A DNA stretch of 64,000 nt from a virus (taxonomy: Duplodnaviria > Caudoviricetes): IMG/VR virus record IMGVR_UViG_3300022555_000003, positions 178,081 to 242,080 of that record. One strand, written 5' to 3'. A program made the translations under genes and the position numbers. Within the stretch, counting starts at the first letter, position 1. Each line of letters starts with the position of its first letter. The notes under the pieces are model-generated. The model was not told the DNA's origin, did no database searches, and saw only the letters and a program-made list of their open reading frames with translations. Below are positions 5,108 through 60,005 of this stretch, piece by piece.

Positions 5108-5873
5108 CATGAGTGAGGAAATATTTAAATATTTCTTGTTGATCTTTTCTTATTTTCAATAAATCGTCTGGTAAAGTAAACCACTTAGTATTACCAGTTT
5201 CAAAGTCTGTATTAGAAAAGTTATTAGGATCAAATATTTCACAAGCAAATACATGCAAATCGTATTGTTTATACTTAAAAATATTTATTGGCTCAACTTG
5301 TTTGACATTTGAAAGAACTAATCCAACTTCTTCTTGTGCTTCTTTCAATGCATTATTTATTGGGCTGTAACTTGGTTCAATTCCACCTTTTGCTAATTGA
5401 AATTTTGTTCCACCAAATGAAGGATCAGACGGTTTCATTAGTAATACTTTTAATTTACCATTATCATAGTAATATGGAATCATCCCCGACTTATCTCTTT
5501 GTTTAGTTGAAATATCATGTAAAAACTTTATAGCTTGTAGCTTATTAGGAAATTCATGAAATAAATTAGTCTTTTCGTCTGTCAGATTGAAAGCATACCC
5601 ACCACTAAGTGGATGCGAAGCAATATGTTTAATAATATTAAGAATATTTTTAGTAGTAGATTTAAATTCGTATTCAATTCTGGTTCCTGGAGTAAAGTTA
5701 ACTCCACCCAAATAAGTAGCAAATCGTACCGCACCATTGTTCATTTCTAGATCAATATCTGGAACTAGATCTCTGTGTGCTGCTGGATAGTATCCTGAAA
5801 ATCTTTCAATTAGTTTGCCGCTGGCTGTTATTAATCCAAAATATGTTTGATGTTCAACTTCATTTAATCTCAT
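5094..5873 (-). CDS. Nudix hydrolase with N-terminal extra domain and capsid-targeting-like N-terminus
   Basis: Nudix box variant GGIEPSYSPINNALKEAQEEVGL; starts MRLNEV. Confidence 0.85.
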   Translation of the reverse strand: MRLNEVEHQTYFGLITASGKLIERFSGYYPAAHRDLVPDIDLEMNNGAVRFATYLGGVNFTPGTRIEYEFKSTTKNILNIIKHIASHPLSGGYAFNLTDEKTNLFHEFPNKLQAIKFLHDISTKQRDKSGMIPYYYDNGKLKVLLMKPSDPSFGGTKFQLAKGGIEPSYSPINNALKEAQEEVGLVLSNVKQVEPINIFKYKQYDLHVFACEIFDPNNFSNTDFETGNTKWFTLPDDLLKIRKDQQEIFKYFLTHENGA

Positions 5874-7318
5874 TGTTTTAGGTTCCTAATCATATTTTTA
5901 GCCAATACTTCTGCATCATGTCTTGTAAAATTTGGATTCTTAAGAGTAGCATCAAGTATTTTATTTTTGATATCGCCAACTAGTCTACCTTTTGCACCCA
6001 ACGCCATAATTTCATTACCATCCAATATACTCTTAGTATTAAGGATTTGATTGATATCCATTTGTTGGATACGCTTTCTGATCATATTGATTTGTTCTGG
6101 CAATCCGTGACCTACAGCATGAGAATTATTGTCTGCATTGATTACGTCCAACACATCCTCAAGATTGTGACTAACTCTGTAGATAAACTTTCTAAGAGTT
6201 GAATCCTTCATAAGTGTTCCATCTGGACCAGCGCTCTTCAATCCCATATGATTACTGATAATAATACAAACTTTATCAATAACTTCAGTTGGGTATTTTA
6301 GTCTACGCAAAGCAACTTTTGCAATGTCTGCTCCAATACTTTCGTGACCAATAAATTGCACTTTTCCATCTTTTTCTGTTCTCGTTGAAGATTTTCCACA
6401 ATCGTGAAATAGTGCCGCTAGTCTCTTAATAAGGTCTGGTGAACTATTGTCTAGAACTGTTAGAGTGTGTCCAAGTGCATCTTGGTTATGAAACTTGTTT
6501 TGCTTTAGCTTATCTAGTGCTTTAAGCTCAGGCAAAATTACGTCCATAATGCCAGTAATTCTAAATAGTTCAAATGCTTTACCAGGCTTATTAAGAACAA
6601 GAATTTTACTGATCTCATCATTGATTCGTTCTGCACTGATACTCTTAAGAGAGGGAGCAGCTTTTTTAATTGATTTAATGACATTAAGTGGAAGAGTAAA
6701 TCCATACTTAATTGCAAATCGAACAGCACGAAGAATACGAAGAGGATCTTCTGAAAATATTAGTTCTGGCTTTCCGGTTGTATTGAGTACTCCATTTTTA
6801 AGATCTTTCAAACCACGTCCACTCAAATCAAGTATCTCACCAGTTTGTAGATTTTGAATTAGAGAATTTATTGTGAAATCTCTGCGTAGTACATCATCCT
6901 TCAACGTTCCAGCCACTACAGCTGGCTTACGACTTCCTGGAGTATATTTTTCTGTCCTGGGTGCTACAAACTCGACATCCATTGGTCCCGAATTTGTTTT
7001 GATTGCAAGTTTTGCAGTAAAATATGTTGGGAACAATACAGGATTGCTATCTTGCTTAAAAATACCAAGCTTTTTAGCAATAAATGTGGCTGCATCAAGC
7101 CCAGCAGTAGGTCCACCATCAACAACAATATCGATATCTTTTGAATTTTTACCCAAAAGTGTATCACGCACAAATCCTCCAGCAATAAATAGCCTTCCGT
7201 CGAATTCAGATCCTTCGATTGCATTTTTCAGAAGTTCAATTGTTTCGTCGGTTTGTGATGATTCCATTATCATACTACTATTATACACTCTTTGGTTGAT
7301 AATTTCAAATATTTTCAT
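5870..7318 (-). CDS. cca: CCA tRNA nucleotidyltransferase (class II) with HD domain
   Basis: GGFVRD, KDIDI, DDVLRRDFTIN, EDPLRILRAVRF, FHDCGK; no PAP G[RK][RK]F signature seen; starts MKIFEI. Confidence 0.88.
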   Translation of the reverse strand: MKIFEIINQRVYNSSMIMESSQTDETIELLKNAIEGSEFDGRLFIAGGFVRDTLLGKNSKDIDIVVDGGPTAGLDAATFIAKKLGIFKQDSNPVLFPTYFTAKLAIKTNSGPMDVEFVAPRTEKYTPGSRKPAVVAGTLKDDVLRRDFTINSLIQNLQTGEILDLSGRGLKDLKNGVLNTTGKPELIFSEDPLRILRAVRFAIKYGFTLPLNVIKSIKKAAPSLKSISAERINDEISKILVLNKPGKAFELFRITGIMDVILPELKALDKLKQNKFHNQDALGHTLTVLDNSSPDLIKRLAALFHDCGKSSTRTEKDGKVQFIGHESIGADIAKVALRRLKYPTEVIDKVCIIISNHMGLKSAGPDGTLMKDSTLRKFIYRVSHNLEDVLDVINADNNSHAVGHGLPEQINMIRKRIQQMDINQILNTKSILDGNEIMALGAKGRLVGDIKNKILDATLKNPNFTRHDAEVLAKNMIRNLKQ

Positions 7319-13491: not shown

Positions 13492-14144
13492 TGTATATTC
13501 CTTGCAAAATCAGCAAATTGTTTTGTGATTTTCGCTACTTCATCTTCTTTGGGTGCTTCTTTAACTACTTTCTTTCGAGTAAGTTGTCTAGTAACTGTGC
13601 CTGGTCCGCCGTTTAAAAATCCATTGCCTCCACCCATACTGCCAGCAATTCCACCGCTTGATGTTCCACCACTCCCTGCGTCTTCACTTAAAAATTTAGC
13701 ATCTAAGAGTGATAATAAACCACTTATAGTATTAGATACTACAGTCTTAGATAACATTCTAACTGGATCAACAACATCCATATAATACTTATTAATAATA
13801 ATTTGCTCTTGCTCTGCTCCGTTTGCACCAGCTTTAGGTGAATAAAAGTGTCTAAAATTCTTACTATTAGTACATAACTTTTCGATTTGCTTTACACCTT
13901 TATAGATATATTTACGTGAATCCGTTGTATACATACCTTCTAACCAAAGTTCGCTTTTAGCAATGTAAAATCTAATATCACCATGTTCTATACTAATTCC
14001 AAATTTTTGACTTATATCTTCATGAAATATTACATCGTTTGATCTAGAATCACTTAGTGAAGGAAGTTTAACTGCGCCAGATTTGGTAATCCAACCAAAC
14101 ATTGTATAGTTTAAATTTCTAGAAAATACTTCTTTAATTAGCAT
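13488..14144 (-). CDS. hypothetical protein, putative internal head protein
   Basis: Start moved to MLIKEVFS, 5 nt after ATAAATA; Gly-rich segment after LSE. Confidence 0.7.
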   Translation of the reverse strand: MLIKEVFSRNLNYTMFGWITKSGAVKLPSLSDSRSNDVIFHEDISQKFGISIEHGDIRFYIAKSELWLEGMYTTDSRKYIYKGVKQIEKLCTNSKNFRHFYSPKAGANGAEQEQIIINKYYMDVVDPVRMLSKTVVSNTISGLLSLLDAKFLSEDAGSGGTSSGGIAGSMGGGNGFLNGGPGTVTRQLTRKKVVKEAPKEDEVAKITKQFADFARNIQ

Positions 14145-28690: not shown

Positions 28691-30970
28691 TTAATATTCA
28701 GTAACAAGTTCTTCAACTTGAATTTTACTGATATTGGATTGGACAGTGATCTTTAACTCTCCGTCCCAATCCAATAGTAACTTTGACTCATCAGCGACAT
28801 TATCAAATAAGATCTTCTTGCTCAATGGAAGTTTGATTAACTTACTAACTTTGCGTGCTAATGGTCTCGCACCCATTTTATCATCAACACCAGTTTCAAT
28901 AATGTAATCAATTAACTTTTCACTAGCAACAACCTGGAACTTCTTTGCTGATAGTAAATTATTGATATCGTTGATCAAGCTAACAACAATCTTACGATAA
29001 CTCAAATTATCAAGCTTATTGAATGTGCAAATTGCACTTAGTCTATTTCTAAACTCTGGCTTGAAAAAGTCTTTAATTGCACTCTTATTGTTTTTCTTAG
29101 AACTTTGATCAAACCCAATTAAATTTTGTTCCATCTCTACAGATCCAAGATTGCTTGTTAAAACAATAATACTTTCTCTGCAATTTGCTTGCTTACCAAC
29201 TCCATTGATATAACCTTCATCCATCATTTGTAGTAGGATTAATGTAACATCAGGATGAGCCTTTTCAATCTCATCAAATAAAATAATGCTATTTGGATGA
29301 ATTTCAATTTCATTAACAAGCTGGCCGCCACCCATTGTGCTATCATCAAAACCTACATACCCAGGAGGTGCTCCAATTAGTTTTGATACTGAATGCTTTT
29401 CTTGATATTCACTACAATCAACTCTGATCAAGTGCATATTCAATTGTTTGCTCAACTCTTTACAAATCAATGTCTTGCCAACACCAGTTGGTCCAAGTAG
29501 CAAGAAGCTGCCAATTGGCTTATTAGGATCTTTCAACCCAGCCTTGCTGATAAGTAATTCATCAGTGATGATATCAACTGCTTCATCTTGACCATATACT
29601 ACTTTCTTTACTTCAAAGCTTAGATCTTTGATTTTTTCAGTTTGAACTTCATCTAGCTGTTCAAGAGGAATCTTAGTTGCTTTACTAATTTCTAGCTGGA
29701 TATCAGACTTATTAACTATCCAATCTGTTGCATCTAAAATTTTAAATTTTGCACAAGCACTATCAATTAGATCAATTGCCTTATCAGGTAACTTTAACTC
29801 TTTCTGATAGCGAATACTCAAATCAACTGCTTCATCAATGGCTTCGTCTGTAATAAATCCACCATGAAATGTTTCAAAGTAACTCTTAATTCCACGTAAG
29901 ATTTGTTTTGCTTTGTTTGGAGTTGGCTCAGTTAACATTAACTTACGGAACCTTCGCATCAAAGCTTTATCTTTTTCAAATGACTTTTTGTACTCTTCCC
30001 AAGTTGTACTTGCAATAACTTTAATTCTGCCCTTTGAGATAGCAGGTTTGAGCATATTTGCTAAATCTGGACCACCAGAAGATCCTGATCCTGCACCAGA
30101 CATTTGATGGGCTTCATCAATGAATAAAATGCATTTTCCGGTTACCGAAAGAGCATCAATGATCTCTACAATCTTTTCTTCAAATTCGCCTCTGTACTTG
30201 GTACCAGCTAACAAGGTACCAATATCAAGATTCCAAACTGTCCAATCTTTTAAGTAATTTGGTACAAATCCTTTAGCAATATTTAATGCAAGACCTTCAA
30301 TCAGACATGTTTTACCAATACCACTATCACCAATCAATAGTACATTGGACTTATTTTTCTTTGCTAAAATTTGAGTGATATCAGTGAGCTCTTCTTCGCG
30401 ACCAATAACAGGATCAATTTTACCATCGTTTGCAAGTGCGTTCAAATTGATACAATGCTTTTCTAGAAGTTCAAGAGCTTGATTGGTGTCCATCTTTCCT
30501 TTTTCAGCAGTTACTTTGTGTTCTTGATAATTATCTTCGTAAAATTTGATAAATTTTTCAGAATCTTCATTGGTAGAACCTAAATGCTTCTTCAGTATAT
30601 ATGCTGCATAGCTGGTTGTTTCTTGCGTAATGCTAACATAGATATCAATCAATCTAATATGATCACGACCTTGAAATACAACCAAATTAGCAGAACGTTC
30701 AATCACTCTTGATAACGTTGCTGTTTTAACTGGATTTGTTTGAGTCTGAGTATTCTGAGTAATAAGTTTTTGATCAGATACATACTTGTTGATTTCTGAA
30801 TGCATCTGATTAGTATCAACACCATACTTAGATAATATATCTTTGAAATTCTTGTAGCATGTCAATGAATACAATAAATGTTCTAATGTCAAATATTGGT
30901 GATTCAAAGACTTGGCATATTCAACAGTCTTCTGAAGTACTAAACTAAGTTCTGGATTTTCTCTTAACAA
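28691..30970 (-). CDS. clpA: ClpA-like Hsp100 ATPase
   Basis: Two AAA+ modules (GDSGIGKT/FIDEAH; GPTGVGKT/LFDEIEKAHPD), IGF ClpP-docking loop (NLIGFDQ), GARPL; 759 aa, no ClpB middle domain. Confidence 0.85.
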   Translation of the reverse strand: MLRENPELSLVLQKTVEYAKSLNHQYLTLEHLLYSLTCYKNFKDILSKYGVDTNQMHSEINKYVSDQKLITQNTQTQTNPVKTATLSRVIERSANLVVFQGRDHIRLIDIYVSITQETTSYAAYILKKHLGSTNEDSEKFIKFYEDNYQEHKVTAEKGKMDTNQALELLEKHCINLNALANDGKIDPVIGREEELTDITQILAKKNKSNVLLIGDSGIGKTCLIEGLALNIAKGFVPNYLKDWTVWNLDIGTLLAGTKYRGEFEEKIVEIIDALSVTGKCILFIDEAHQMSGAGSGSSGGPDLANMLKPAISKGRIKVIASTTWEEYKKSFEKDKALMRRFRKLMLTEPTPNKAKQILRGIKSYFETFHGGFITDEAIDEAVDLSIRYQKELKLPDKAIDLIDSACAKFKILDATDWIVNKSDIQLEISKATKIPLEQLDEVQTEKIKDLSFEVKKVVYGQDEAVDIITDELLISKAGLKDPNKPIGSFLLLGPTGVGKTLICKELSKQLNMHLIRVDCSEYQEKHSVSKLIGAPPGYVGFDDSTMGGGQLVNEIEIHPNSIILFDEIEKAHPDVTLILLQMMDEGYINGVGKQANCRESIIVLTSNLGSVEMEQNLIGFDQSSKKNNKSAIKDFFKPEFRNRLSAICTFNKLDNLSYRKIVVSLINDINNLLSAKKFQVVASEKLIDYIIETGVDDKMGARPLARKVSKLIKLPLSKKILFDNVADESKLLLDWDGELKITVQSNISKIQVEELVTEY

Positions 30971-35181: not shown

Positions 35182-35901
35182 ATGTCCAAGAAGCAACAAC
35201 AACAACAAAAACAATCAAAACCAGTAACTGATAATACAATACAATTTGAACGTATCCAAAAACGTACTAGCATTGTACCCAGAAATTTAGTACAAGAAGA
35301 GTACTTAGATATGTTAATGGATACTCAAAAAGTAATTGTATTTGCAGTTGGCCCAGCTGGAACTGGTAAAACACTTTTATCCATGATGGCTGGTGTAAGA
35401 GCACTTAAAGAAGGCATTGTTAAAAAATTAATTTTAACTAGGCCAGCTATTGGAGTTGATGGAGAAGAGCACGGATTTTTGCCTGGCGATATAAATGCTA
35501 AAATGGCACCGTGGACTTTACCACTTATGGATATTATAAACGAATGTTATGATCATACTCAAGTTGAAAAAATGTTACTTGAGCAAACAATCGAACTAGC
35601 TCCACTTTCTTTTATGAGAGGAAGAAATTTTGCTAATGCTTGGATTGTGTTTGATGAAGCACAAAATTCTACAGTTAATCAAATGAAGATGGTATTAACA
35701 CGTATTAGTACAAATAGCAAAGCTATTATAACTGGTGATCTTGAACAAGTTGATAGACAGTTTGCTAAAATTAATGGGTTAAAAGATATTTTAACTAGAC
35801 TTCCTGACGATGATAAAATGATTGGAAAAGTTACATTTGGGCGTGAACATATTGAACGTCATCCGATTGTGTCGAAAGTGCTCAGTCTATACGGAGAATA
35901 A
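35182..35901 (+). CDS. phoH: PhoH-family ATPase
   Basis: GPAGTGKT, RGRNF, DEAQN, TGDLEQVD. Confidence 0.92.
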   Translation: MSKKQQQQQKQSKPVTDNTIQFERIQKRTSIVPRNLVQEEYLDMLMDTQKVIVFAVGPAGTGKTLLSMMAGVRALKEGIVKKLILTRPAIGVDGEEHGFLPGDINAKMAPWTLPLMDIINECYDHTQVEKMLLEQTIELAPLSFMRGRNFANAWIVFDEAQNSTVNQMKMVLTRISTNSKAIITGDLEQVDRQFAKINGLKDILTRLPDDDKMIGKVTFGREHIERHPIVSKVLSLYGE

Positions 35902-35908
35902 TCACAAG

Positions 35909-35938
35909 TGTAGGGCTGAGTTTTAATTCAGCCCTACA
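35909..35938. terminator. terminator hairpin between convergent genes
   Basis: TGTAGGGCTGA / TCAGCCCTACA. Confidence 0.75.
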
Positions 35939-35947
35939 CAAAAGTTA

Positions 35948-36325
35948 CTAATTATTTTCTTTACAACTGATTACTATTGCTAGTGTTGTTATCCTTTGCT
36001 CTATTGTAGCATGTAAGAATACCCAGGCATCTTCGTAAAATTTGCCTTTGAGACCATTTATACTTGCTACATGGCTTATATAATGTTCTCGTTGATTGTC
36101 AGTAAGACGATTTTCTACTTCGTGAATACAATCTAATGTTAACTCTCTCGGAATCCACTTCATCCCGCCGCCATAAATAGCTATTAATATCCACCAACCG
36201 TCCTTAGAATTCTCTTTTCCATACCAGCACAACGGAAGTTCGGGTTTTTCTTCCATTAGATTACAGATTATTTTTTTGTTATTTAAAACTTCTCTGTAAT
36301 CTACATAATCTAATTTGTCATTCAT
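35948..36325 (-). CDS. hypothetical protein
   Basis: ORF in operon. Confidence 0.65.
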   Translation of the reverse strand: MNDKLDYVDYREVLNNKKIICNLMEEKPELPLCWYGKENSKDGWWILIAIYGGGMKWIPRELTLDCIHEVENRLTDNQREHYISHVASINGLKGKFYEDAWVFLHATIEQRITTLAIVISCKENN

Positions 36326-36333
36326 ATTTTATA

Positions 36334-36705
36334 TTAAGCTACAATTTCATCGGCTGTAATATTAATTACATTAGGTACAACTACATCACCCTTTGCATCT
36401 TCGGTGTTTACACCCATTGCTTTGAAAAGTCTATCAAAATATCCAGTATAATTCTTATAAAAATAAGAAAAAATCTGTTCGTAGTTTTGTCCTTTGAGTT
36501 CACCTAAGCTGCATTTAATAACTTCTTGGTTGATGACATCAATAATGACATTACAATTTCTCATATCCTTCTTAGAAACTGTTCGTACGAAGTTAACAGT
36601 TTCTTCTAGTTGATAGTTCCCTTCTGTTTTCATATAACCAACTTCAGATGTTTTCTTAGCATCTAGCGGTGTACGAAAGTATGTTGCTGTGAGATATATA
36701 TTCAT
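36334..36705 (-). CDS. hypothetical protein
   Basis: AAGGA RBS, coupled. Confidence 0.7.
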   Translation of the reverse strand: MNIYLTATYFRTPLDAKKTSEVGYMKTEGNYQLEETVNFVRTVSKKDMRNCNVIIDVINQEVIKCSLGELKGQNYEQIFSYFYKNYTGYFDRLFKAMGVNTEDAKGDVVVPNVINITADEIVA

Positions 36706-36872
36706 TTTATCCTTTTTTCTAATTCTGTAATTCGTTCACGTAATACCTGGTTAACATCATCTGCATCAACTTTATAATCCAATAGATAAACGATATGATT
36801 TACGCCATAAGTTTTATGATGTTCTAAAATTTTATCTCGTATTTCAATGGGTAATGGTCCAATATTTTTCAT
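36702..36872 (-). CDS. small hypothetical protein
   Basis: Start moved to MKNIG (TAA-T-ATG coupling). Confidence 0.5.
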   Translation of the reverse strand: MKNIGPLPIEIRDKILEHHKTYGVNHIVYLLDYKVDADDVNQVLRERITELEKRIK

Positions 36873-36873
36873 A

Positions 36874-37602
36874 TTATTTCTCAAGAGCTGATAATTCTAC
36901 AAATAATGCGGCAACATTTATTTCTGGATCACAAACCAAACTTGCATTTACAGCCGCTTTTCTGATAATCAAGATTGCTTCATCTTTACCTTCTTCTGTA
37001 TTAGCAAATAAATCCAAATTTTGATAAGTCCATGTAATTAACGAATCGATTTCATCTGGTCTAATTTGTGAGCAAATTAAAGTCCTTGCTTCTCTAAATT
37101 TTCCTTGCTTAAATAAATTTACTGCTTCAACTTTGTAATCATTGGCATCTACTTCTTCAGATTCGCTAATAGTTAATTTCTTATCAATAGAATTCAATTG
37201 GCAAATATTAATGCATTTTCGTAAATCTGGATATGTAGCTTTTACATAAGTATCAATTGTATCAAGATCAAAATCAATATTTTCAGCAATTAATATTTCA
37301 GCTATTCTTGTTGTAAACGAAGTTAGATCTAACTTATCAATATGTAGGCATTGGCATCTACCTTTAACAGCTGGAATGATCTTATGAGCATAGTTGCATG
37401 TTAGAATAAATCTAGACGTCAAAGCATATTCTTCCATAAGCCCACGTAAGATACCTTGAGCACCTGGGGAGAGAAAATCACAATTATGAGTTAAAAAATT
37501 CCCGTTGTTGATAAAGAAGTTATGGGTTCCTGGTACCGATATATCAAAAACTTTAGCTTTTTTTTCAATTACCTTAATTGATTTTATTTTTAATTCGACC
37601 AT
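36874..37602 (-). CDS. clamp loader (RFC/gp44-like) C-terminal half preceded by split-intein IntC (40 aa)
   Basis: IntC MVELKIK...VFDISV..THNFF...LTHN followed by +1 Cys: CDFLSPGAQ...RFILTCNY...GRC. Confidence 0.9.
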   Translation of the reverse strand: MVELKIKSIKVIEKKAKVFDISVPGTHNFFINNGNFLTHNCDFLSPGAQGILRGLMEEYALTSRFILTCNYAHKIIPAVKGRCQCLHIDKLDLTSFTTRIAEILIAENIDFDLDTIDTYVKATYPDLRKCINICQLNSIDKKLTISESEEVDANDYKVEAVNLFKQGKFREARTLICSQIRPDEIDSLITWTYQNLDLFANTEEGKDEAILIIRKAAVNASLVCDPEINVAALFVELSALEK

Positions 37603-53159: not shown

Positions 53160-53522
53160 GTGAAGAAGACCATAAAAATTAACAGCAAGGCTGGTCACAT
53201 ATTATATTCAGCTGATGGCAATACTTTAGTTGGCGCAAATCTTCGCGATACCAATTTACATTATGCATATTTGCCTGGTGTGGATTTAAGTTATTCAGAT
53301 TTGAGATTTTCAAATTTATATCTGGCAGATTTGAGTAATGCTAATTTACATGGTGCAAATTTAATCGAAGCAGATTTAACTAGAGCTGATTTACGTGGTG
53401 CAAATCTAGAAGATATAATAGTAAATGAATACACTGTTATAGATTTGAACACTAAATTAGATCCTGAACAACTTACATATTTGATACTTAAAGGAGTATA
53501 TTATTTTGGAAATAAAGTCTAA
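53160..53522 (+). CDS. pentapeptide repeat protein 1
   Basis: A(D/N)LxxA(D/N)L repeats. Confidence 0.9.
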   Translation: MKKTIKINSKAGHILYSADGNTLVGANLRDTNLHYAYLPGVDLSYSDLRFSNLYLADLSNANLHGANLIEADLTRADLRGANLEDIIVNEYTVIDLNTKLDPEQLTYLILKGVYYFGNKV

Positions 53523-53862
53523 GGACGGAAAAATATTGCGTACAACCCAAAAGAATACACTAGTTTTTGAAGATTTATCAAGAGAAAATTTAGGGTGGGT
53601 AGATTTTAGAGATCAGAATATGCTTGGTGTATCTTTAAATAATTCATATTTGCGCTGTGCAGATTTTCGTAGATCAAATTTGTGTCATGCAAACTTATGT
53701 GGTGCAAGTTTAGTTGAAGCAAATTTGCGTGGTGCAAATTTGTGTGATGCAGATTTTCGCAGGGCAAGTTTACGTGGAGCATATTTAGATAATGTTGAAA
53801 TAGATGAGCTTACAAGAATTGATTCAACTACTAATATTAGTGAAAAAATCTCGCCTATCTGA
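53506..53862 (+). CDS. pentapeptide repeat protein 2 (probable 1-nt deletion near 3' end)
   Basis: Pentapeptide repeats; paralog tail LAYLILLGLKYGN lies out of frame after the A6 run at 53843-53848. Confidence 0.85.
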   Translation: MEIKSKDGKILRTTQKNTLVFEDLSRENLGWVDFRDQNMLGVSLNNSYLRCADFRRSNLCHANLCGASLVEANLRGANLCDADFRRASLRGAYLDNVEIDELTRIDSTTNISEKISPI

Positions 53863-53880
53863 TTTTGCTAGGACTTAAAT

Positions 53881-54387
53881 ATGGAAATTAAAAATAAATC
53901 TGGAGTGATTTTATATGACACTTTTAACGACTCTTTAGCTGGTATAAATTTAAGTGGTGATAATTTATTTGAATTATGTTTAAGTAGATCTAATTTAGAA
54001 AGTGCAAACTTCGACTTTTCAAACATACGAGAATCAGATTTGAGTTTTTCAAATCTGAAGCACGCCCACATGCGTGATATATATGCAGAATATGTAGACT
54101 TTCATGGAGCAGATTTATATAATGCAGATTTATATAAAGCTAAGTTAAAAGGTTCAAATTTATCTGGAGCAAATCTAAAAAATTCAAATTTATATTGTTC
54201 AGATTTACGTGATGCAGATTTAAGTAATGCTGATTTGAGTGGAGTAAGTATGAGCAGAACTAATTTGTACGGCGCTAATTTAGAAAATGTAAAAATAAGT
54301 GATACAACTTTTATGAACATAACAACATTAATTTCACCAGAAAATCTCACCTATCTGATTTTGCTAGGACTTAAATATGGAAATTAA
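53881..54387 (+). CDS. pentapeptide repeat protein 3
   Basis: Pentapeptide repeats; 42-nt near-identical repeat at 53849-53890 and 54346-54387. Confidence 0.9.
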   Translation: MEIKNKSGVILYDTFNDSLAGINLSGDNLFELCLSRSNLESANFDFSNIRESDLSFSNLKHAHMRDIYAEYVDFHGADLYNADLYKAKLKGSNLSGANLKNSNLYCSDLRDADLSNADLSGVSMSRTNLYGANLENVKISDTTFMNITTLISPENLTYLILLGLKYGN

Positions 54388-54389
54388 GG

Positions 54390-54418
54390 TTGCGCTTTGG
54401 ATTAGGATCTGCTATACT
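54390..54418 (+). promoter_or_regulatory. sigma70-type promoter for RNA ligase
   Basis: TTGCGC-17 nt-TATACT. Confidence 0.6.
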
Positions 54419-54423
54419 TAATT

Positions 54424-55524
54424 ATGGAACTAAATATTCAAAAACTGTTGCGAAATATACCTAATGCTTTAGATGAAATTAAAGCACTTGGTATTGATTA
54501 TCGTGTTCACCCAAGATTTCCAAATTTGGTGCAGTTCACGTATGATCAAATTGAATCAGCTTCTAACAAATCACATCCTATTGTATGCGAATCACGCGGT
54601 TTGATTTTAGATTCTATGCAGAATTGGAACGTGGTTTCACACCCGCTTAATCGCTTTTTTAATTATGGCGAAGTAGGTAGCGCAGAAATTGACTGGAAGT
54701 CAGCTAAGATTTTTGAAAAAGTCGATGGCAGCATGTTGGTTGTTTATTGGTACGCTGGTTCGTGGCAAGTTTCAACCAAAGGAACTCCTGATGCAAACTG
54801 CAATGTAGGTGAATTTGATACCACGTTTGAAAAGTTGTTTTGGAAGTCGTTTTATAATACACACGATGCTGGTTTTTTAATTCCTGGGTGGACTTATGTT
54901 TTTGAATTAACTTCAAAATACAATCGAATTGTAACGTCTCAAATGGGCAACGAAGGGTTTGTTACGTTACTTGCAATTCGAGATCAAAAAGGTGACGAAT
55001 TAAGTGTTGACGACTGGACGCACGAATTCAATGTTGTAAAACAATTTAACATTAATACTGTGGATGCTGTTATCGAAGCGGCTAAAAATCTAGATCCTAT
55101 TTCTCAAGAAGGATTTGTTGTTGTTGACAAAAACTTCAACCGTGTTAAAATCAAGTCTCCTCGTTATGTGATGATTCACCACTTGAAGGATGCAATTAAT
55201 CCACGTCGATTAGTTGATCTCATCAAGCTTGGTGAAAAAGATGAGTGCTTGGTTTATTTTCCAGATCTTGAACAACGATATAATGAACTGCAATCTGCAA
55301 TGTATAACACTGGTATAAAAGCTGATTATTGGTTTCTTCAAGTGCGATCATTTAACAATACTCGAAAAGAGTTTGCACTTAAAGTTCAAGAAATTGTGCC
55401 TAAGCCATTATGGAGTGCAATGTTTATGATGCTCAGTGTTCAACAATCTGGGTTTGCTTGGTTATGTTCGCAAGCATCTATACGAGTTATTGAAATTTTG
55501 GAGAATTTAAATGATAAAAATTAA
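54424..55524 (+). CDS. RNA ligase (T4 Rnl1-like)
   Basis: ESRGLI, RFFN, EKVDGS (I), YVFEL (III), EGFVV (IV), RVKIK (V). Confidence 0.88.
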   Translation: MELNIQKLLRNIPNALDEIKALGIDYRVHPRFPNLVQFTYDQIESASNKSHPIVCESRGLILDSMQNWNVVSHPLNRFFNYGEVGSAEIDWKSAKIFEKVDGSMLVVYWYAGSWQVSTKGTPDANCNVGEFDTTFEKLFWKSFYNTHDAGFLIPGWTYVFELTSKYNRIVTSQMGNEGFVTLLAIRDQKGDELSVDDWTHEFNVVKQFNINTVDAVIEAAKNLDPISQEGFVVVDKNFNRVKIKSPRYVMIHHLKDAINPRRLVDLIKLGEKDECLVYFPDLEQRYNELQSAMYNTGIKADYWFLQVRSFNNTRKEFALKVQEIVPKPLWSAMFMMLSVQQSGFAWLCSQASIRVIEILENLNDKN

Positions 55525-55876
55525 TGATTTTATAGATAAATCTAGAGTTGTCCAATGGGCACAATACAAGAAAGCCAAGCGTGATGCTGGAGAGGAATGT
55601 TATAAGTGTAGTGGTTTTATTCCTTATCATTATACAGCTACGCCTGGACCAGCAATGTGTGGAAGTTGTAAAAATTTAGAGAATAATCCTGGACAGGTAT
55701 TTAGTGAAAGGTTAGTTAGATGTCCTACTTGTTCTCACCAGCAAGAAATTGATACTTATGACGATTATTCAGTTTATGAAGAAGGCGAGCACGAAGTTAT
55801 GTGTAATAATTGCGAAGAAGAGTATACAATTTCTACTTCAATAACATATACATTTAAAAGTCCAAGGTTAAATTAA
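55511..55876 (+). CDS. Cys-rich (four CxxC) zinc-ribbon protein
   Basis: CYKC, CGSC, CPTC, CNNC. Confidence 0.7.
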   Translation: MIKINDFIDKSRVVQWAQYKKAKRDAGEECYKCSGFIPYHYTATPGPAMCGSCKNLENNPGQVFSERLVRCPTCSHQQEIDTYDDYSVYEEGEHEVMCNNCEEEYTISTSITYTFKSPRLN

Positions 55877-56118
55877 TGAAAAAAACAGTTTACATATGTG
55901 ATCGTTGTGGTAAAGAATTCTCAGAAACTAGTGGAGGAACAAGTGTGGAATTCCAATTTGGTACTTACATGGATCCAGCTGAAGGTACTAAATCAGATTA
56001 TAAATACATTGACTTATGCGAAGTATGTATCTATCATTTGCTTAAAGGATGTCTGAAGAAATTAACTGAACTAGACCGTGAATCTTCTTATAATATTTTT
56101 CGGATAAAAATAAAATGA
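55876..56118 (+). CDS. small zinc-finger protein
   Basis: YICDRCGK...DLCEVC. Confidence 0.7.
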   Translation: MKKTVYICDRCGKEFSETSGGTSVEFQFGTYMDPAEGTKSDYKYIDLCEVCIYHLLKGCLKKLTELDRESSYNIFRIKIK

Positions 56119-56489
56119 TATACGGAAAGCGTGAAATTAGTACTAGTTTTATTAATCGTGTGACCATTGATAATCTACATTTCGCAAAAGAAATTTCTGA
56201 TAAATGTATAAAGTATGATGCAGACAGTGATTATCTAGTTCGAATGTCTGAAGCTGTGTGCAAGTATTGTTTTTATATTACTACTTCTAGAATAGGCGGA
56301 TGCGCTATGACTAGTCAGCCCTGCGGAATTTGTGAAGAAGTTCAAATGTATGGTAGTACTGCAACAAATGTTCTTTGCCAGCCATGTGGAGTTAAACATA
56401 ATTTGTGTGTTAGATGTGGCGCAGATCTTCTTGATCGCCCAAAAAGGAAATTCAAAAATGAAGAGTCCAACACTAAAAGAAAAAGTTGA
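56115..56489 (+). CDS. Cys-rich hypothetical protein
   Basis: CKYC, CGIC, CQPC, CVRC. Confidence 0.7.
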   Translation: MIYGKREISTSFINRVTIDNLHFAKEISDKCIKYDADSDYLVRMSEAVCKYCFYITTSRIGGCAMTSQPCGICEEVQMYGSTATNVLCQPCGVKHNLCVRCGADLLDRPKRKFKNEESNTKRKS

Positions 56490-56679
56490 GGTGTATGAAA
56501 ATCTGCTGCATACTCTTAATACTTATTTTGCAATTACAATGAGTTCAGAAAAAGTTAAAGAAGTTCTTTGTGAGATTTCAAATTGGTCCTATGCTCACAG
56601 AGTAGGAAATGGAACTTTAACTGATCGAGAACAATCTAAATTAGTAAATAAACATTTTGATAACTTTAAAAAACTATGA
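56458..56679 (+). CDS. hypothetical protein
   Basis: Start moved to MKSPTLKE (AAGGA RBS). Confidence 0.6.
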   Translation: MKSPTLKEKVEVYENLLHTLNTYFAITMSSEKVKEVLCEISNWSYAHRVGNGTLTDREQSKLVNKHFDNFKKL

Positions 56680-57062
56680 CACCAAATGAATTATCAGATT
56701 TAATAAAACGTCTTCGTAAGCGTCAAACGAAACTAGCTGTTACTATCGAAAAAACATTGGAACTATGTAAACACGAAAAAGTTGTCACATTGTGTTCGTA
56801 TTATGGTGGAAGCTATTCTTATGATCGAGATGATTGGCATCCCGAAATGAGAAAATGTTTGATTTGTGGTCTAATAGAGTGTGGTCCATCTACAGATATT
56901 GATGAATTCAAACTATTAAAAAATCCAATTAAACGATTTGAATACAGTGTTCTTGATAGTAAAAATAAAGGGTGGAAAGATAGTCCATTAAATAATACCA
57001 TGAAATATTCACTCGAACAATTAGAAAAATGGGTGTCTGAGTCTGGATATCGAGTATGGTAA
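56676..57062 (+). CDS. hypothetical protein
   Basis: ATGA coupling. Confidence 0.65.
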   Translation: MTPNELSDLIKRLRKRQTKLAVTIEKTLELCKHEKVVTLCSYYGGSYSYDRDDWHPEMRKCLICGLIECGPSTDIDEFKLLKNPIKRFEYSVLDSKNKGWKDSPLNNTMKYSLEQLEKWVSESGYRVW

Positions 57063-57442
57063 GCGACTTGTTTAAGCAGTTATTTTTTGGATATGAAGTA
57101 GCACTTGGTGTCATCGGAGTTGCTATATTTGTTGGAGTATTGGTGTATGTCTTACAAGGTAAAAAATATACTCAAGAAGAAATTAATGAGTTAGATGCGA
57201 AGCTAATTCATAAGTATCAAGTAAAATCTTTTGAAAATTCAAATCTATTAAAAAATAGCAAGTATTATACGGCTACTTCAGACGAGATTATAAGTCAAAT
57301 GACAAATGAATTAACTCCAAACGAAATTTATTGCAAACTTTTTCTTTATTATATTCAAACAAAAAAATGTCGTTCTGATGTATTAAGAATGTATAAAGAA
57401 GAATTTGAAAATATTGGTCGGAAGCCAGAATGGCATAAATAA
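57056..57442 (+). CDS. membrane-anchored hypothetical protein
   Basis: N-terminal TM helix. Confidence 0.65.
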   Translation: MVSDLFKQLFFGYEVALGVIGVAIFVGVLVYVLQGKKYTQEEINELDAKLIHKYQVKSFENSNLLKNSKYYTATSDEIISQMTNELTPNEIYCKLFLYYIQTKKCRSDVLRMYKEEFENIGRKPEWHK

Positions 57443-57446
57443 GTTT

Positions 57447-57720
57447 GTAGGTGATGATCTGGACTGAAAACTTTCTGGACGCGAATTCGAATTTCGCCAT
57501 CTCCACTGAGCATATTCTAATAAGTGTGTTGAGTGGGGATGTACAGGTTTCGACAGGATGGAATGGGAATAGGGAATCTACCGTGAAGTGCTCACGAAAA
57601 ACAGAACAAAACTATAAACGACACAACTAATAATTGGATCGCTACTGGTTCTTACGACTTCAGCAATGAAGATGTATTAGCATAAACAGATGAGTTGATC
57701 GCTTGGAAACAGAAAGATCG
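57447..57720 (+). ncRNA. ssrA: circularly permuted (two-piece) tmRNA
   Basis: T-arm GCGAA-TTCGAAT-TTCGC plus acceptor 3' strand CATCTCCA (57498-57505) precede the 5' strand GGGGATG..AGGTTTCGAC (57535); resume TAAAC|GAC at 57620; tag ORF 57620-57685; CTTGGAAACAGAA motif downstream. Confidence 0.9.
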
Positions 57721-57721
57721 T

Positions 57722-57755
57722 AAAAATGGCGTACCGTAAAAAGTACGCCATTTTT
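57722..57755. terminator. bidirectional intrinsic terminator
   Basis: AAAAATGGCGTAC / GTACGCCATTTTT. Confidence 0.85.
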
Positions 57756-57761
57756 ATCTAT

Positions 57762-58991
57762 CTACTTAGTTGATTTCTGTACAGAATCGAAATGATCTCC
57801 ATGTGAACTATTTCTATCACAATTTGGTTTTTGACCACGTAAAATTTTAAATGCTCCGTTTTGTATAAGTCCTTTCTGATTCTTAGCCCATTGTTCCCAC
57901 AGAGATAACTCAACTTCTTTTAAGTCTGGACTTTTACTCAATGGTAGAATACCATTTGATTCATATTCTTTTTCAAAGTGTTCAAACAATGTATAATACA
58001 TTTCGCAGGCTTCAGTTTTATTTCTCCAATCTTGCATTATTCCTGTACCTGGGCATTGAGCTTTACACATACTAAAAAATCTACACCCTTTACATCCATT
58101 GTATTCTTGTGGAGTCAGGTATAGAGCCATTTGACGTTCATACCCATGTTGTTCAGCTTTAATAAAGCTAATGCCTTCTTTTGCATTTCGACCACAACTT
58201 AAACTTTCACCTTGCCCACTAACTCCTCTGACTGCATCAGTTGTATAAGGGTCGCAACTATGAAATGTACAAGTTGTAGAATCATCTTCTCCTAACAACA
58301 TTTGTTTAACATCGCCAAACATATCAAATTTTAAATTTTTTAATTCCTTTTCTAATTCACTAAATTCTAACATTACTTCAGCTACTCGTTTACCTGGCAT
58401 TCCCATCTTATCGCCAACGCTATCATATTCAATCTCTAATGGATGCAATCTACAACTACAGACACCTTTATCATCCATTTCTCTAAACCATTGTTTAAGT
58501 TTAGGTAATTTTTCTGGAGTTGAATTTAACTTATGCAATGTTATAATAAAACTTGGTGGTCGACCTATGCTGCATAATTTTTCAGCAGCTAACATACTCA
58601 TTGCAGTACGTCGATTAGTTTCTTCTATGCTTCCAGCCCATCTACCTAGATTGAGTTCATATGGACCATCTACACTCATGCCAACATGCACATTATACTT
58701 TACAAATAAATCAATATGTTTATCAGTAATTAAAGTACCGTTAGTCTGGATACCATTTGACTTGTATTTTTTGAATCCATATTCAAATAATTTTTCTAAC
58801 GTATCAATATCAGTTAATAATGGCTCACCACCAAATATACTAAATTTCCCACCCTCACGATCTAATCCGGCAATCATCTTTTCTAGATCATAATTTGGCC
58901 TATATCCACCAGCATCCCGCATAGGATGTTCATAACAATATGTACAGGCTAGATTGCATAAAATTCCGACGGGGGTCAGCTCCACACTCAA
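57762..58991 (-). CDS. radical SAM/SPASM-domain protein (peptide-maturase type)
   Basis: CNLACTYC (CxxxCxxC), FGGEPLL, IQTNG, SVDGP, SPASM Cys (CTFHSC, SCG, CKGCRFFSMCKAQCP, CEMY); TTG start with AAGGAG RBS. Confidence 0.92.
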   Translation of the reverse strand: MSVELTPVGILCNLACTYCYEHPMRDAGGYRPNYDLEKMIAGLDREGGKFSIFGGEPLLTDIDTLEKLFEYGFKKYKSNGIQTNGTLITDKHIDLFVKYNVHVGMSVDGPYELNLGRWAGSIEETNRRTAMSMLAAEKLCSIGRPPSFIITLHKLNSTPEKLPKLKQWFREMDDKGVCSCRLHPLEIEYDSVGDKMGMPGKRVAEVMLEFSELEKELKNLKFDMFGDVKQMLLGEDDSTTCTFHSCDPYTTDAVRGVSGQGESLSCGRNAKEGISFIKAEQHGYERQMALYLTPQEYNGCKGCRFFSMCKAQCPGTGIMQDWRNKTEACEMYYTLFEHFEKEYESNGILPLSKSPDLKEVELSLWEQWAKNQKGLIQNGAFKILRGQKPNCDRNSSHGDHFDSVQKSTK

Positions 58992-59009: not shown

Positions 59010-59078
59010 TAAATAATAGTGTAGTTCGCGGAATTGATGTTCCCAACTACTCTATTACTAAACAGGAGTAACAGCTCA
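59010..59078 (+). promoter_or_regulatory. late promoter plus conserved two-hairpin leader of HNH gene (copy 3 of 3)
   Basis: TAAATA...GTAGTTcgcGGAAT-tgat-GTTCCcAACTACtctATTACT-aaac-AGGAGTAAcagctcaATG. Confidence 0.7.
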
Positions 59079-60005
59079 ATGATATTTATCAAAGACGAAT
59101 TTTCAACAGAGTATTTTCAAATAATTTCAACTGCTCAATTAAGAGCAAACACCAAAAAATTAGCCCAAAAATTATTTCCATTAACAATAATTGAAAAACA
59201 TCATATTATACCTGATTCTTTTTATATAAATCGTAAGCGAGAAGGAAATGGTGGTTGGTTAAGTGGCAATCCATCTGAAATAAGCAATTTAGTATTTTTG
59301 ACATCCAGAGAACATTATAGATGTCATTGGTTATTATCTTTAATGACATTAGATGATATTACATATCATATTTTAGCAAAAGTAAAAATGGCCAATGCAT
59401 TGAATCGTATGAGTGGCAAAGGAGTTAATTTTACAAGATATGAACTATCAGAATCTGAATATGTTTTTGCTAGGAAAAATCTTAGTAAATTATTATCTAA
59501 ATGTATTGTTTCTGAGGGAAGTATCAAAAAACAACTTGCTACTAAATTAAAAAACGGAACACTAAATTGTAGTAGTACAGAATCTATACAAAAAGGATTA
59601 GATACTAAGACAGTTAATAACACATTACCTAGTAATCCAATAATTAAAGATAAAGCTAAAGCTACTAGACTATCTAGATATGGTACATTAAATACTAGTA
59701 GTCCTGAATCTATTGCTAAAATTCTTTCTACTAAAATATCAAATAATACATTAGCAAGTAATCTATTGATAAAAGCTAAAACTAAAGCTACCAAATTAAA
59801 GAATAATTCTGGACCTAGTGCAGCAGAAACTATCAAAAAACAACAAGAAACTAAACTGAAAAACGGAACCTTACAAAATTCTTTAGAAGTTCAAACAAAA
59901 AGTCGTAATACAAAAGAAGCAAATCATAATAAATTTATTTGTGAAATTTGCAAAAAGAAATATAGTTATGAAAAATCACTTGTTAATCATATTGATCGAC
60001 ATTAA
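59079..60005 (+). mobile_element. free-standing HNH homing endonuclease inserted antisense in the radical SAM operon
   Basis: EKHHIIP...NLVFLTSREHYRCHWLL; K-x-K-x-T-K-L repeats; C-terminal C2H2 finger; start moved to 59079. Confidence 0.82.

Follow-up and report, generated by a model that had tools for sequence, protein, structure and literature searches.

Transfer-messenger RNA (tmRNA) is the bacterial RNA that rescues stalled ribosomes. Here, we report that a lytic-type freshwater jumbo phage very probably carries a functional, circularly permuted ssrA gene. The gene lies towards the end of a stretch of 64,000 nucleotides (the window), which forms the final 64 kb of the uncultured IMG/VR virus record IMGVR_UViG_3300022555_000003 (242,080 bp, 33% guanine-cytosine (GC) content); positions are those of the window unless the record is named. 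This reading is carried by the calls of ARAGORN and of the Rfam model RF04321, by the fold, a G3:U70 pair, the T loop and the context of the resume codon, by covariation with the only relative found, by the geometry of the promoter, by identical contigs, by the pattern of CCA ends and by published precedent.

ARAGORN called a permuted tmRNA on the plus strand at 57416-57776 with the tag DTTNNWIATGSYDFSNEDVLA, and the Rfam model RF04321 (tmRNA_permuted) matched the plus strand at 57447-57685 over its entire length (model positions 1-213 of 213) with 81.3 bits against a gathering score of 47 (E 5e-14). A preliminary description of this DNA, made from its letters alone, had proposed a circularly permuted phage tmRNA and named ARAGORN as a check; the permuted call and the above-threshold match, together with a complete tag frame and a terminator, bear this proposal out, and all the elements that it listed (ATAAATA, acceptor piece, spacer, GGGGATG, tag frame and terminator) are present where it had placed them. 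The order of the parts is the permuted one, with the 3' tRNA-like half followed by a spacer, the 5' half and then the tag frame, and both the gene and the features that define its fold can be read directly from the DNA.

The acceptor piece, which is the 3' half of the tRNA-like domain, occupies 57447-57505 on the plus strand as delimited by RF04321 (model positions 1-62), the 3' tRNA domain of ARAGORN and the minimum free energy fold. This piece includes the 5' strands of helix P2 (57447-57451 and the inner strands), the T arm at 57481-57497 (stem GCGAA/UUCGC and loop UUCGAAU in the RF04321 alignment and in the fold), the 3' strand of the acceptor stem at 57498-57504 and the discriminator A57505, with CATCTCCA spanning 57498-57505. 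An intervening segment of 29 nucleotides (57506-57534, plus strand), predicted to be excised from the precursor, forms a hairpin that prolongs the acceptor stem; folded alone it reaches -7.8 kcal/mol (z -3.4), and none of 200 shuffled sequences was as stable. The coding piece at 57535-57760 (plus strand; RF04321, ARAGORN and fold) opens with the 5' strand of the acceptor stem (57535-57541) and contains the D-loop analogue GGUUUCGAC as well as the 3' strands of P2, which reach to 57581; a hairpin at 57582-57596 also belongs to it, as do the tag frame, a 3' tail and the terminator. Across the spacer, GGGGATG (57535-57541) pairs with CATCTCC (57498-57504) in an acceptor stem of 7 bp with six Watson-Crick pairs and a single G-U, and this lone G-U, G57537-U57502, stands at position 3:70. 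In both tRNA-Ala and tmRNA, alanyl-tRNA synthetase recognises a G3:U70 pair as its identity element.

The gene closes with a bidirectional intrinsic terminator hairpin of 15 bp (57720-57757), common to the tmRNA and a convergent radical-SAM gene. The hairpin is preceded by an A run and followed by a T run, which makes it symmetric, and the terminator scan flagged the minus strand, which is that of the convergent gene. The region 57686-57760 folds at -24.7 kcal/mol (z -5.8), while the fold of the precursor 57447-57760 (-88.6 kcal/mol, z -4.7) recovers the T arm, the spacer-prolonged acceptor stem and the terminator. The CCA of the tmRNA is not encoded, since A-C-T follows the acceptor stem. In this it resembles the tRNA genes of the phage: ARAGORN found 20 of these and the single tmRNA in the whole record, and 13 of the 20 tRNA genes are missing a full encoded CCA; most of the 20 end N73-C and then T as the tmRNA does. 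The stretch with the tmRNA is also present with zero differences in contigs from four sequencing runs (lake or freshwater metagenomes from four studies, 2016-2020), and the sequence is therefore no accident of assembly and the phage a freshwater one; the record itself may derive from some of these runs, and being free of variants they yield no covariation data. No RNA run turned up among the carriers of the stretch.

The tag reading frame called by ARAGORN has 21 codons (DTTNNWIATGSYDFSNEDVLA, 57620-57682, plus strand) and is closed by the stop codon TAA at 57683-57685. The resume codon, GAC (Asp), follows UAAAC (UAAAC and GAC at 57615-57622), and at the resume site the RF04321 consensus UAAaUGCa is aligned with UAAACGAC. 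The predicted tag thus consists of Ala and 21 further residues, carries a net charge near -4 and has Val-Leu-Ala at its C-terminus. That this ending is non-canonical was pointed out in the preliminary description, and the comparison with other tags agrees: among 63 distinct permuted-tmRNA tags collected, 55 end in Ala-Ala and only this one in Leu-Ala. Four of the same 63 tags begin with Asp and 13 have at least 21 residues, so that length is not rare among phage genes. The tag is absent from those supplements of the tmRNA database paper that were accessible. A group of IMG/VR contigs with 51-54% GC (L004, L032, L068 and L082) carries a 495-nucleotide permuted tmRNA call that reaches just 71 bits with RF04321 and has the tag GKADEWIFMGSVGG, whose last residue is not Ala; the W-I-x-x-G-S of this tag resembles W-I-A-T-G-S in the tag of the present phage, possibly by chance.

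The only relative found is carried by a 24-kb viral contig, IMGVR_UViG_3300027586_000051 (L150/L163, here L150), which is the same DNA as Ga0208966_1000131 (L229). Homologues of an RNA ligase encoded near the tmRNA of the phage were found at 13 loci with 44-50% identity, of which L150 alone has a tmRNA, located within 3 kb of a ligase gene 45% identical to that of the phage. Searches of viral and metagenome contig collections with DNA patterns specific to the lineage returned no carrier besides the L150 contig, and with a looser pattern one unrelated standard tmRNA came up besides chance matches; a search for relatives via the upstream open reading frame (ORF) at 57056-57442 found none. The two genes share their P2 and D-loop-analogue sequence, the resume context of UAAAC before GAC, a late-type octamer (TATAAATA in L150) 5-7 nucleotides ahead of the equivalent 5' base and the RNA ligase homologue in the vicinity. 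L150 differs in having a tag of 11 codons, DNSNVFALLAA, with the canonical LAA end, as well as an encoded CCA, the T loop UUUAACU and a score of 104 bits with RF04321. As this relative ends in LAA, the VLA ending of the phage tag appears to be a derived state.

Three helices differ between the two genes by compensatory changes. In the acceptor stem, A5-U and U6-A of the phage gene are both C-G in L150; in the T stem, GCGAA/UUCGC corresponds to GUUGG/CCAAC; and in outer P2, GUAGG/UCUAC corresponds to GAUAA/UUAUC. Such changes are the signature of selection on the structure of the tmRNA. Compared with 113 other permuted tmRNAs collected from viral and bacterial contigs, similarity was limited to the tRNA-like domain, where it amounted to 70-79% over about 90 nucleotides.

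The promoter-like octamer CATAAATA lies on the plus strand at 57434-57441, with ATAAATA at 57435-57441 preceded by C57434, and is an instance of the late-type motif of the phage, NATAAATA. It is followed by 5 nucleotides and then by G57447, the first base of the RF04321 match; the transcript is predicted to start there, 5-6 nucleotides downstream of the motif. This geometry, which is directly visible, recurs throughout the genome. Among 175 NATAAATA sites genome-wide, 57 are found no more than 60 nucleotides ahead of an ORF with 60 codons or more, compared with 3-11 of 38-105 sites for ten control octamers of like composition. The distances from NATAAATA to ATG peak sharply at exactly 5 nucleotides, which leaves no space for a ribosome-binding site, and 33 ORFs lie 3-8 nucleotides behind the motif. 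Examples in the window are the minus-strand starts at 14144, 17904, 23849, 26060 and 26810, which have NATAAATA 5 nucleotides ahead and no Shine-Dalgarno sequence. A scan of ten motif-led ORFs identified a tail sheath (E 1e-82), a head-tail adaptor and a virion structural protein, along with baseplate or collar-like proteins. The phage thus seems to make many leaderless late mRNAs, those of structural genes included. In a second class, NATAAATA is found 18-24 nucleotides upstream of the start together with an AGGA-type site.

The proposal in the preliminary description that the tmRNA stands under a late promoter gains support, as regards the promoter itself, from the genome-wide spacing of NATAAATA and 5 nucleotides, which is the same at the tmRNA, and from the octamer before the tmRNA of L150. 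In a test for a T4-type late promoter, CATAAATA matched the TATAAATA-like octamer at 7 of 8 positions, and the same class of motif stands before structural genes, while no sigma-70-like promoter was predicted at the tmRNA. Because the geometry agrees at the tmRNA, L150 has TATAAATA and a sigma-70-like promoter is lacking, the sequences make it most likely that the tmRNA is served by a promoter of its own, of the same class as the one before the structural genes; the label 'late' is used by analogy with T4. The locus may serve as a clean example of a stable-RNA gene placed behind a phage late-type promoter at the spacing of leaderless mRNAs.

The affiliation of the tmRNA to a subtype was approached with the Rfam subtype models. 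The beta model (RF01850) scored best at 80.3 bits over its full length (cut-off 84), followed by the cyano model (RF01851) at 38.1 bits, likewise full length (cut-off 70), and the alpha model (RF01849), also named as a check in the preliminary description, at 24.1 bits in a local match to model positions 83-171 (cut-off 50). By these scores the tmRNA is best described as beta-like but divergent, and it is placed in no subtype. A tight pattern made from the core of the gene retrieved 49 bacterial loci, almost all in Rhodocyclaceae and other Burkholderiales with the tag ANDERFALAA, together with second copies from Stenotrophomonas and Herbaspirillum; genes of the beta type are also present on many low-GC viral contigs. 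The suggestion that the host is probably an alphaproteobacterium finds no support here, given that the alpha model falls below its cut-off while the beta model scores best and that the bacterial carriers of the core pattern belong to Rhodocyclaceae and other Burkholderiales. The host of phage Melnitz has a beta-type tmRNA while the phage gene groups with those of alphaproteobacteria (PMC9004378), and the type of a phage tmRNA need therefore not match that of its host, which weakens in principle any inference of host from type. The permuted form of a tmRNA does not point to an alphaproteobacterial host, and this corrects a tempting shortcut. No host could be named from a BLAST search of the tmRNA against 401 bacterial genomes of one order, which gave 6 weak matches in the tRNA-like domain only, or from the RNA ligase homologues in cultured phages, which reached at most 35% identity and came from mixed hosts.

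Beta-type permuted tmRNAs with odd and variable tags (for example ANADYYDQNEQDTLLAA and ANQPQYIAYGT) were also seen in Stenotrophomonas (L111, L112, L115, L116, L119, L123, L129, L137 and L142) and Herbaspirillum (L121). A one-piece tmRNA gene is expected in Stenotrophomonas, and the odd-tag genes probably represent additional copies borne by prophages or other mobile elements.

The pathway of two-piece tmRNAs has been summarised previously (PMC9004378, PMC11915505), and the steps proposed here are modelled on it. A single precursor of about 310 nucleotides would be transcribed from the NATAAATA-type promoter, most likely from about G57447, and would end at the hairpin at 57720-57757. Cleavage by the RNase P of the host before G57535, removal of the 29-nucleotide spacer and trimming of the 3' end to A57505 would leave an acceptor piece of 59 nucleotides and a coding piece of about 225 nucleotides, held together via the acceptor stem and helix P2. 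The CCA could then be completed at the A57505 end, possibly by the phage's own enzyme: a nucleotidyltransferase of the CCA-adding type, with PolyA_pol head, RNA-binding and HD domains, is encoded on the minus strand at 5870-7318 and is a candidate for finishing the CCA end in the tmRNA as well as in most tRNAs of the phage. The host alanyl-tRNA synthetase would charge the molecule via G3:U70, and the charged tmRNA would enter stalled ribosomes with the SmpB of the host, where translation would resume at GAC 57620 and add Ala and 21 residues ending in Val-Leu-Ala. The likely benefit would be that ribosomes are kept free late in infection and that truncated proteins are marked for proteolysis.

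Several observations weigh against a functional gene transcribed and used in this way. No SmpB was found in the record, estimated by CheckV to be 74% complete, and the phage must thus use that of its host. The nearest subtype model, beta, is narrowly below its cut-off (80.3 against 84 bits). Since the 113 other permuted tmRNAs resemble the tRNA-like domain only, the mRNA-like part is one that, on present comparisons, rests on two sequences. The octamer at the tmRNA begins with C, and only 4 of 24 CATAAATA sites lie upstream of genes, and a late sigma factor of the gp55 type (T4 gp55, phrog_234 and phrog_12791) was sought in the same incomplete record without success, although phrog_12791 matched no control genome either. 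These last points would fit a gene without a promoter of its own, transcribed by read-through from the plus-strand block at 53160-57442, with the ends of the acceptor piece made by processing and CATAAATA a chance match. The ATAAATA heptamer is not enriched in the window (50 observed against 56 expected), C is the least used first base of the motif before genes, G being preferred (39 of 65 GATAAATA sites lie upstream of genes), and the octamer overlaps the stop codon TAA (57440-57442) of the ORF at 57056-57442. On the other hand, the 5 nucleotides between motif and start are exactly those of the leaderless genes, four other long ORFs are preceded by CATAAATA at 3-5 nucleotides, TATAAATA stands 5-7 nucleotides before the tmRNA of L150, and the bacterial genes in the beta model likewise start directly behind their promoter. 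Transcription by read-through is for these reasons considered unlikely, though it deserves to be kept in mind.

A further explanation is that the gene is an inactive passenger, a host ssrA gene or fragment gained by faulty excision or recombination and now decaying. Genes for tmRNA are common integration sites and phages do carry fragments of them (PMC9004378), and the beta-model score below cut-off could be taken for decay. A decaying gene is difficult to reconcile with a complete one in which every helix is intact and the tag frame open, that is kept with compensatory changes in the distant relative L150, that has the base composition of the phage and that is distant from any bacterial tmRNA found (74-79% identity over only about 90 nucleotides); this explanation is accordingly very improbable. 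Alternatively, the RNA could act as a decoy which titrates away the SmpB of the host or blocks its trans-translation, a role that has been suggested for the RNA of mycobacteriophage DS6A, which consists of the tRNA-like domain only (PMC4131195). The DS6A precedent and the lack of a phage-encoded SmpB speak for it, but both members of the lineage have a full tag frame and a conserved resume context that a decoy would not need, so that a decoy role is, of the explanations considered here, the one we regard as least probable. The functional two-piece tmRNA with its own promoter is hence the preferred reading.

The genome around the tmRNA contains a plus-strand gene block that ends at the tmRNA. 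It is headed by three consecutive pentapeptide-repeat proteins (120, 118 and 168 aa; 53160-54387, plus strand), followed by the Rnl1-type RNA ligase at 54424-55524 (plus strand), 2 kb upstream of the tmRNA. On the other side, the convergent radical-SAM gene occupies 57762-58991 on the minus strand, and a homing-endonuclease-like ORF (phrog_655; 59034-60005, plus strand) is situated between it and the next minus-strand genes. The ORFs at 57451-57630 (plus strand) and 57288-57506 (minus strand) were rejected as genes, as they overlap the tmRNA and have no support. Elsewhere in the record (35686-36891, minus strand) a homologue of the TnpB/IS200-605-type transposases is found (phrog_506, E 4e-108), the start of which has the late-type arrangement CATAAATA-N5-ATG. 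A search of GenBank phages for similar DNA (blastn, distant mode) gave no match.

The unusual end of the tag can be considered together with the Clp genes of the phage. Outside the window, clpX, rpsU (bS21), hsp20 and clpS are arranged in a row at record positions 104226-106637, and a ClpP-like peptidase is encoded on the minus strand at record positions 130510-131151, with the Ser, His and Asp motifs apparently kept when the translation is read by eye. A ClpA-like double-ring AAA+ unfoldase of 759 aa, a possible reader of tagged proteins, lies within the window on the minus strand (28691-30970) and matches TIGR02639 (ClpA) over its full length with 753.7 bits, under the cut-off of 993. The phage ClpX (413 aa) scores 486.8 bits with NF003745 against a threshold of 359, has the zinc finger and the GYVG, IGF and KKH loops, and is by this measure to be regarded as a true equivalog. 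According to Fei et al. 2020 (PMC7652416), the Ala-Ala-COO- end of the ssrA tag is bound by six residues of E. coli ClpX. An alignment of the phage protein to E. coli ClpX (8e91_A) shows Y153, V154 and H230 to be kept, while three of the six differ (T199N, V202I and R228K). In the 20 closest ClpX proteins (61-68% identity, from a large protein collection), residue 202 is Ile in all 20 and residue 199 is Asn or His in 19 and Ser in one, whereas T/V/RKH is kept in most other viral ClpX. The contigs of the closest homologues also keep the order clpX-rpsU-hsp20-clpS, with a CLP_protease gene 4 kb further on.

These data fit, as weak evidence, a clade of phage ClpX that may read a different C-terminus, and they suggest an extension of the preferred explanation in which the tag is aimed not at the host ClpXP but at the Clp machinery of the phage, that is ClpX, ClpS and the ClpA-like and ClpP-like proteins. 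The equivalog match, the three altered residues out of the six that read ssrA, the N/H/S199 and I202 signature which sets the 20 closest ClpX apart from most other viral ClpX, the conserved cluster with a protease nearby and a tag ending in VLA instead of AA are all in its favour. Against it, T199 is not universal (Ala199/S230 occurs in 34 of 120 ClpX homologues), Asn or His could still bond the carboxylate, and the tag of L150 ends in the canonical LAA; moreover, ClpX was found in none of 16 other tmRNA-bearing viral records and a tmRNA above cut-off in none of 20 ClpX-bearing viral fragments. We regard this extension as tentative and rather unlikely. Its more specific form, a private tag-and-destroy pathway in which the 22-residue VLA tag would be read by the phage ClpX, possibly with the ClpA-like and ClpP-like proteins, and not by host ClpXP, is more doubtful still. 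If it were true, the phage would control what becomes of truncated proteins in the infected cell. A genome with ClpX, ClpS, ClpA-like and ClpP-like proteins, bS21, Hsp20, 20 tRNAs and a CCA-adding enzyme offers a well-defined case in which to ask whether the tag and the protease of a phage are matched to each other.

Since two-piece tmRNAs of phages are already published, the present gene is an additional member of a known set rather than a first case. Lists of phage tmRNAs date back to at least 2014 (PMC4131195); such RNAs have also been reported in huge phages (Al-Shayeb et al. 2020, PMC7162821) and are represented by 79 phage sequences in the tmRNA database (PMC11915505). Two-piece forms have been described for the Methylophilales phage Melnitz and for pelagimyophage-like marine contigs, and ARAGORN called 53 of them, 50 being aquatic, in 18,146 phage genomes (Buchholz et al. 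2022, PMC9004378). In our searches, a single loose pattern retrieved about 100 IMG/VR contigs with permuted tmRNAs.

With Melnitz and the pelagimyophage-like contigs the gene has in common that a permuted tmRNA with a complete tag frame is encoded by a low-GC aquatic genome of T4-like or large myophage type and in no integrase context. The Melnitz gene is alpha-like and is reported to stand behind an early promoter and to have a glutamine riboswitch in its 3' part (PMC9004378), whereas the gene reported here is beta-like, has a late-type motif and gave no riboswitch match when the window was searched with Rfam for the glutamine riboswitch. Furthermore, its 21-codon tag ends in VLA, in contrast to ANDxxxALAA-type tags, and it has no detectable similarity to any GenBank phage. 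The one-piece tmRNAs of phages (the mycobacteriophage Bxz1 group, Bacillus phage G and huge phages) are likewise rescue RNAs in phage genomes rich in tRNA and translation genes, but they are not permuted, and some huge phages encode SmpB, unlike the present record (PMC7162821).

Among bacteria, the closest likeness is to the two-piece tmRNA of betaproteobacteria (RF01850; Sharkady and Williams 2004, as cited in PMC9004378), exemplified by Rhodocyclaceae with the tag ANDERFALAA. The core motifs UCUGGACG...UUCGA...CCAnCUCCA and GGGGnUGUACnGGUUUCGACAGG are shared, the beta model is the best-scoring subtype model, and in both the gene starts directly behind its promoter. The phage gene differs in its resume codon, which is Asp and not Ala, in a tag of twice the length that lacks the terminal AA, in a 3' part that is not alignable, in its GC content (41% against about 60%) and in being phage-borne. 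The known set of phage two-piece tmRNAs thus gains one divergent freshwater lineage, a rare and beta-like one with a late-type promoter and a non-Ala-Ala tag, of which two members were found in the viral and metagenome collections searched.

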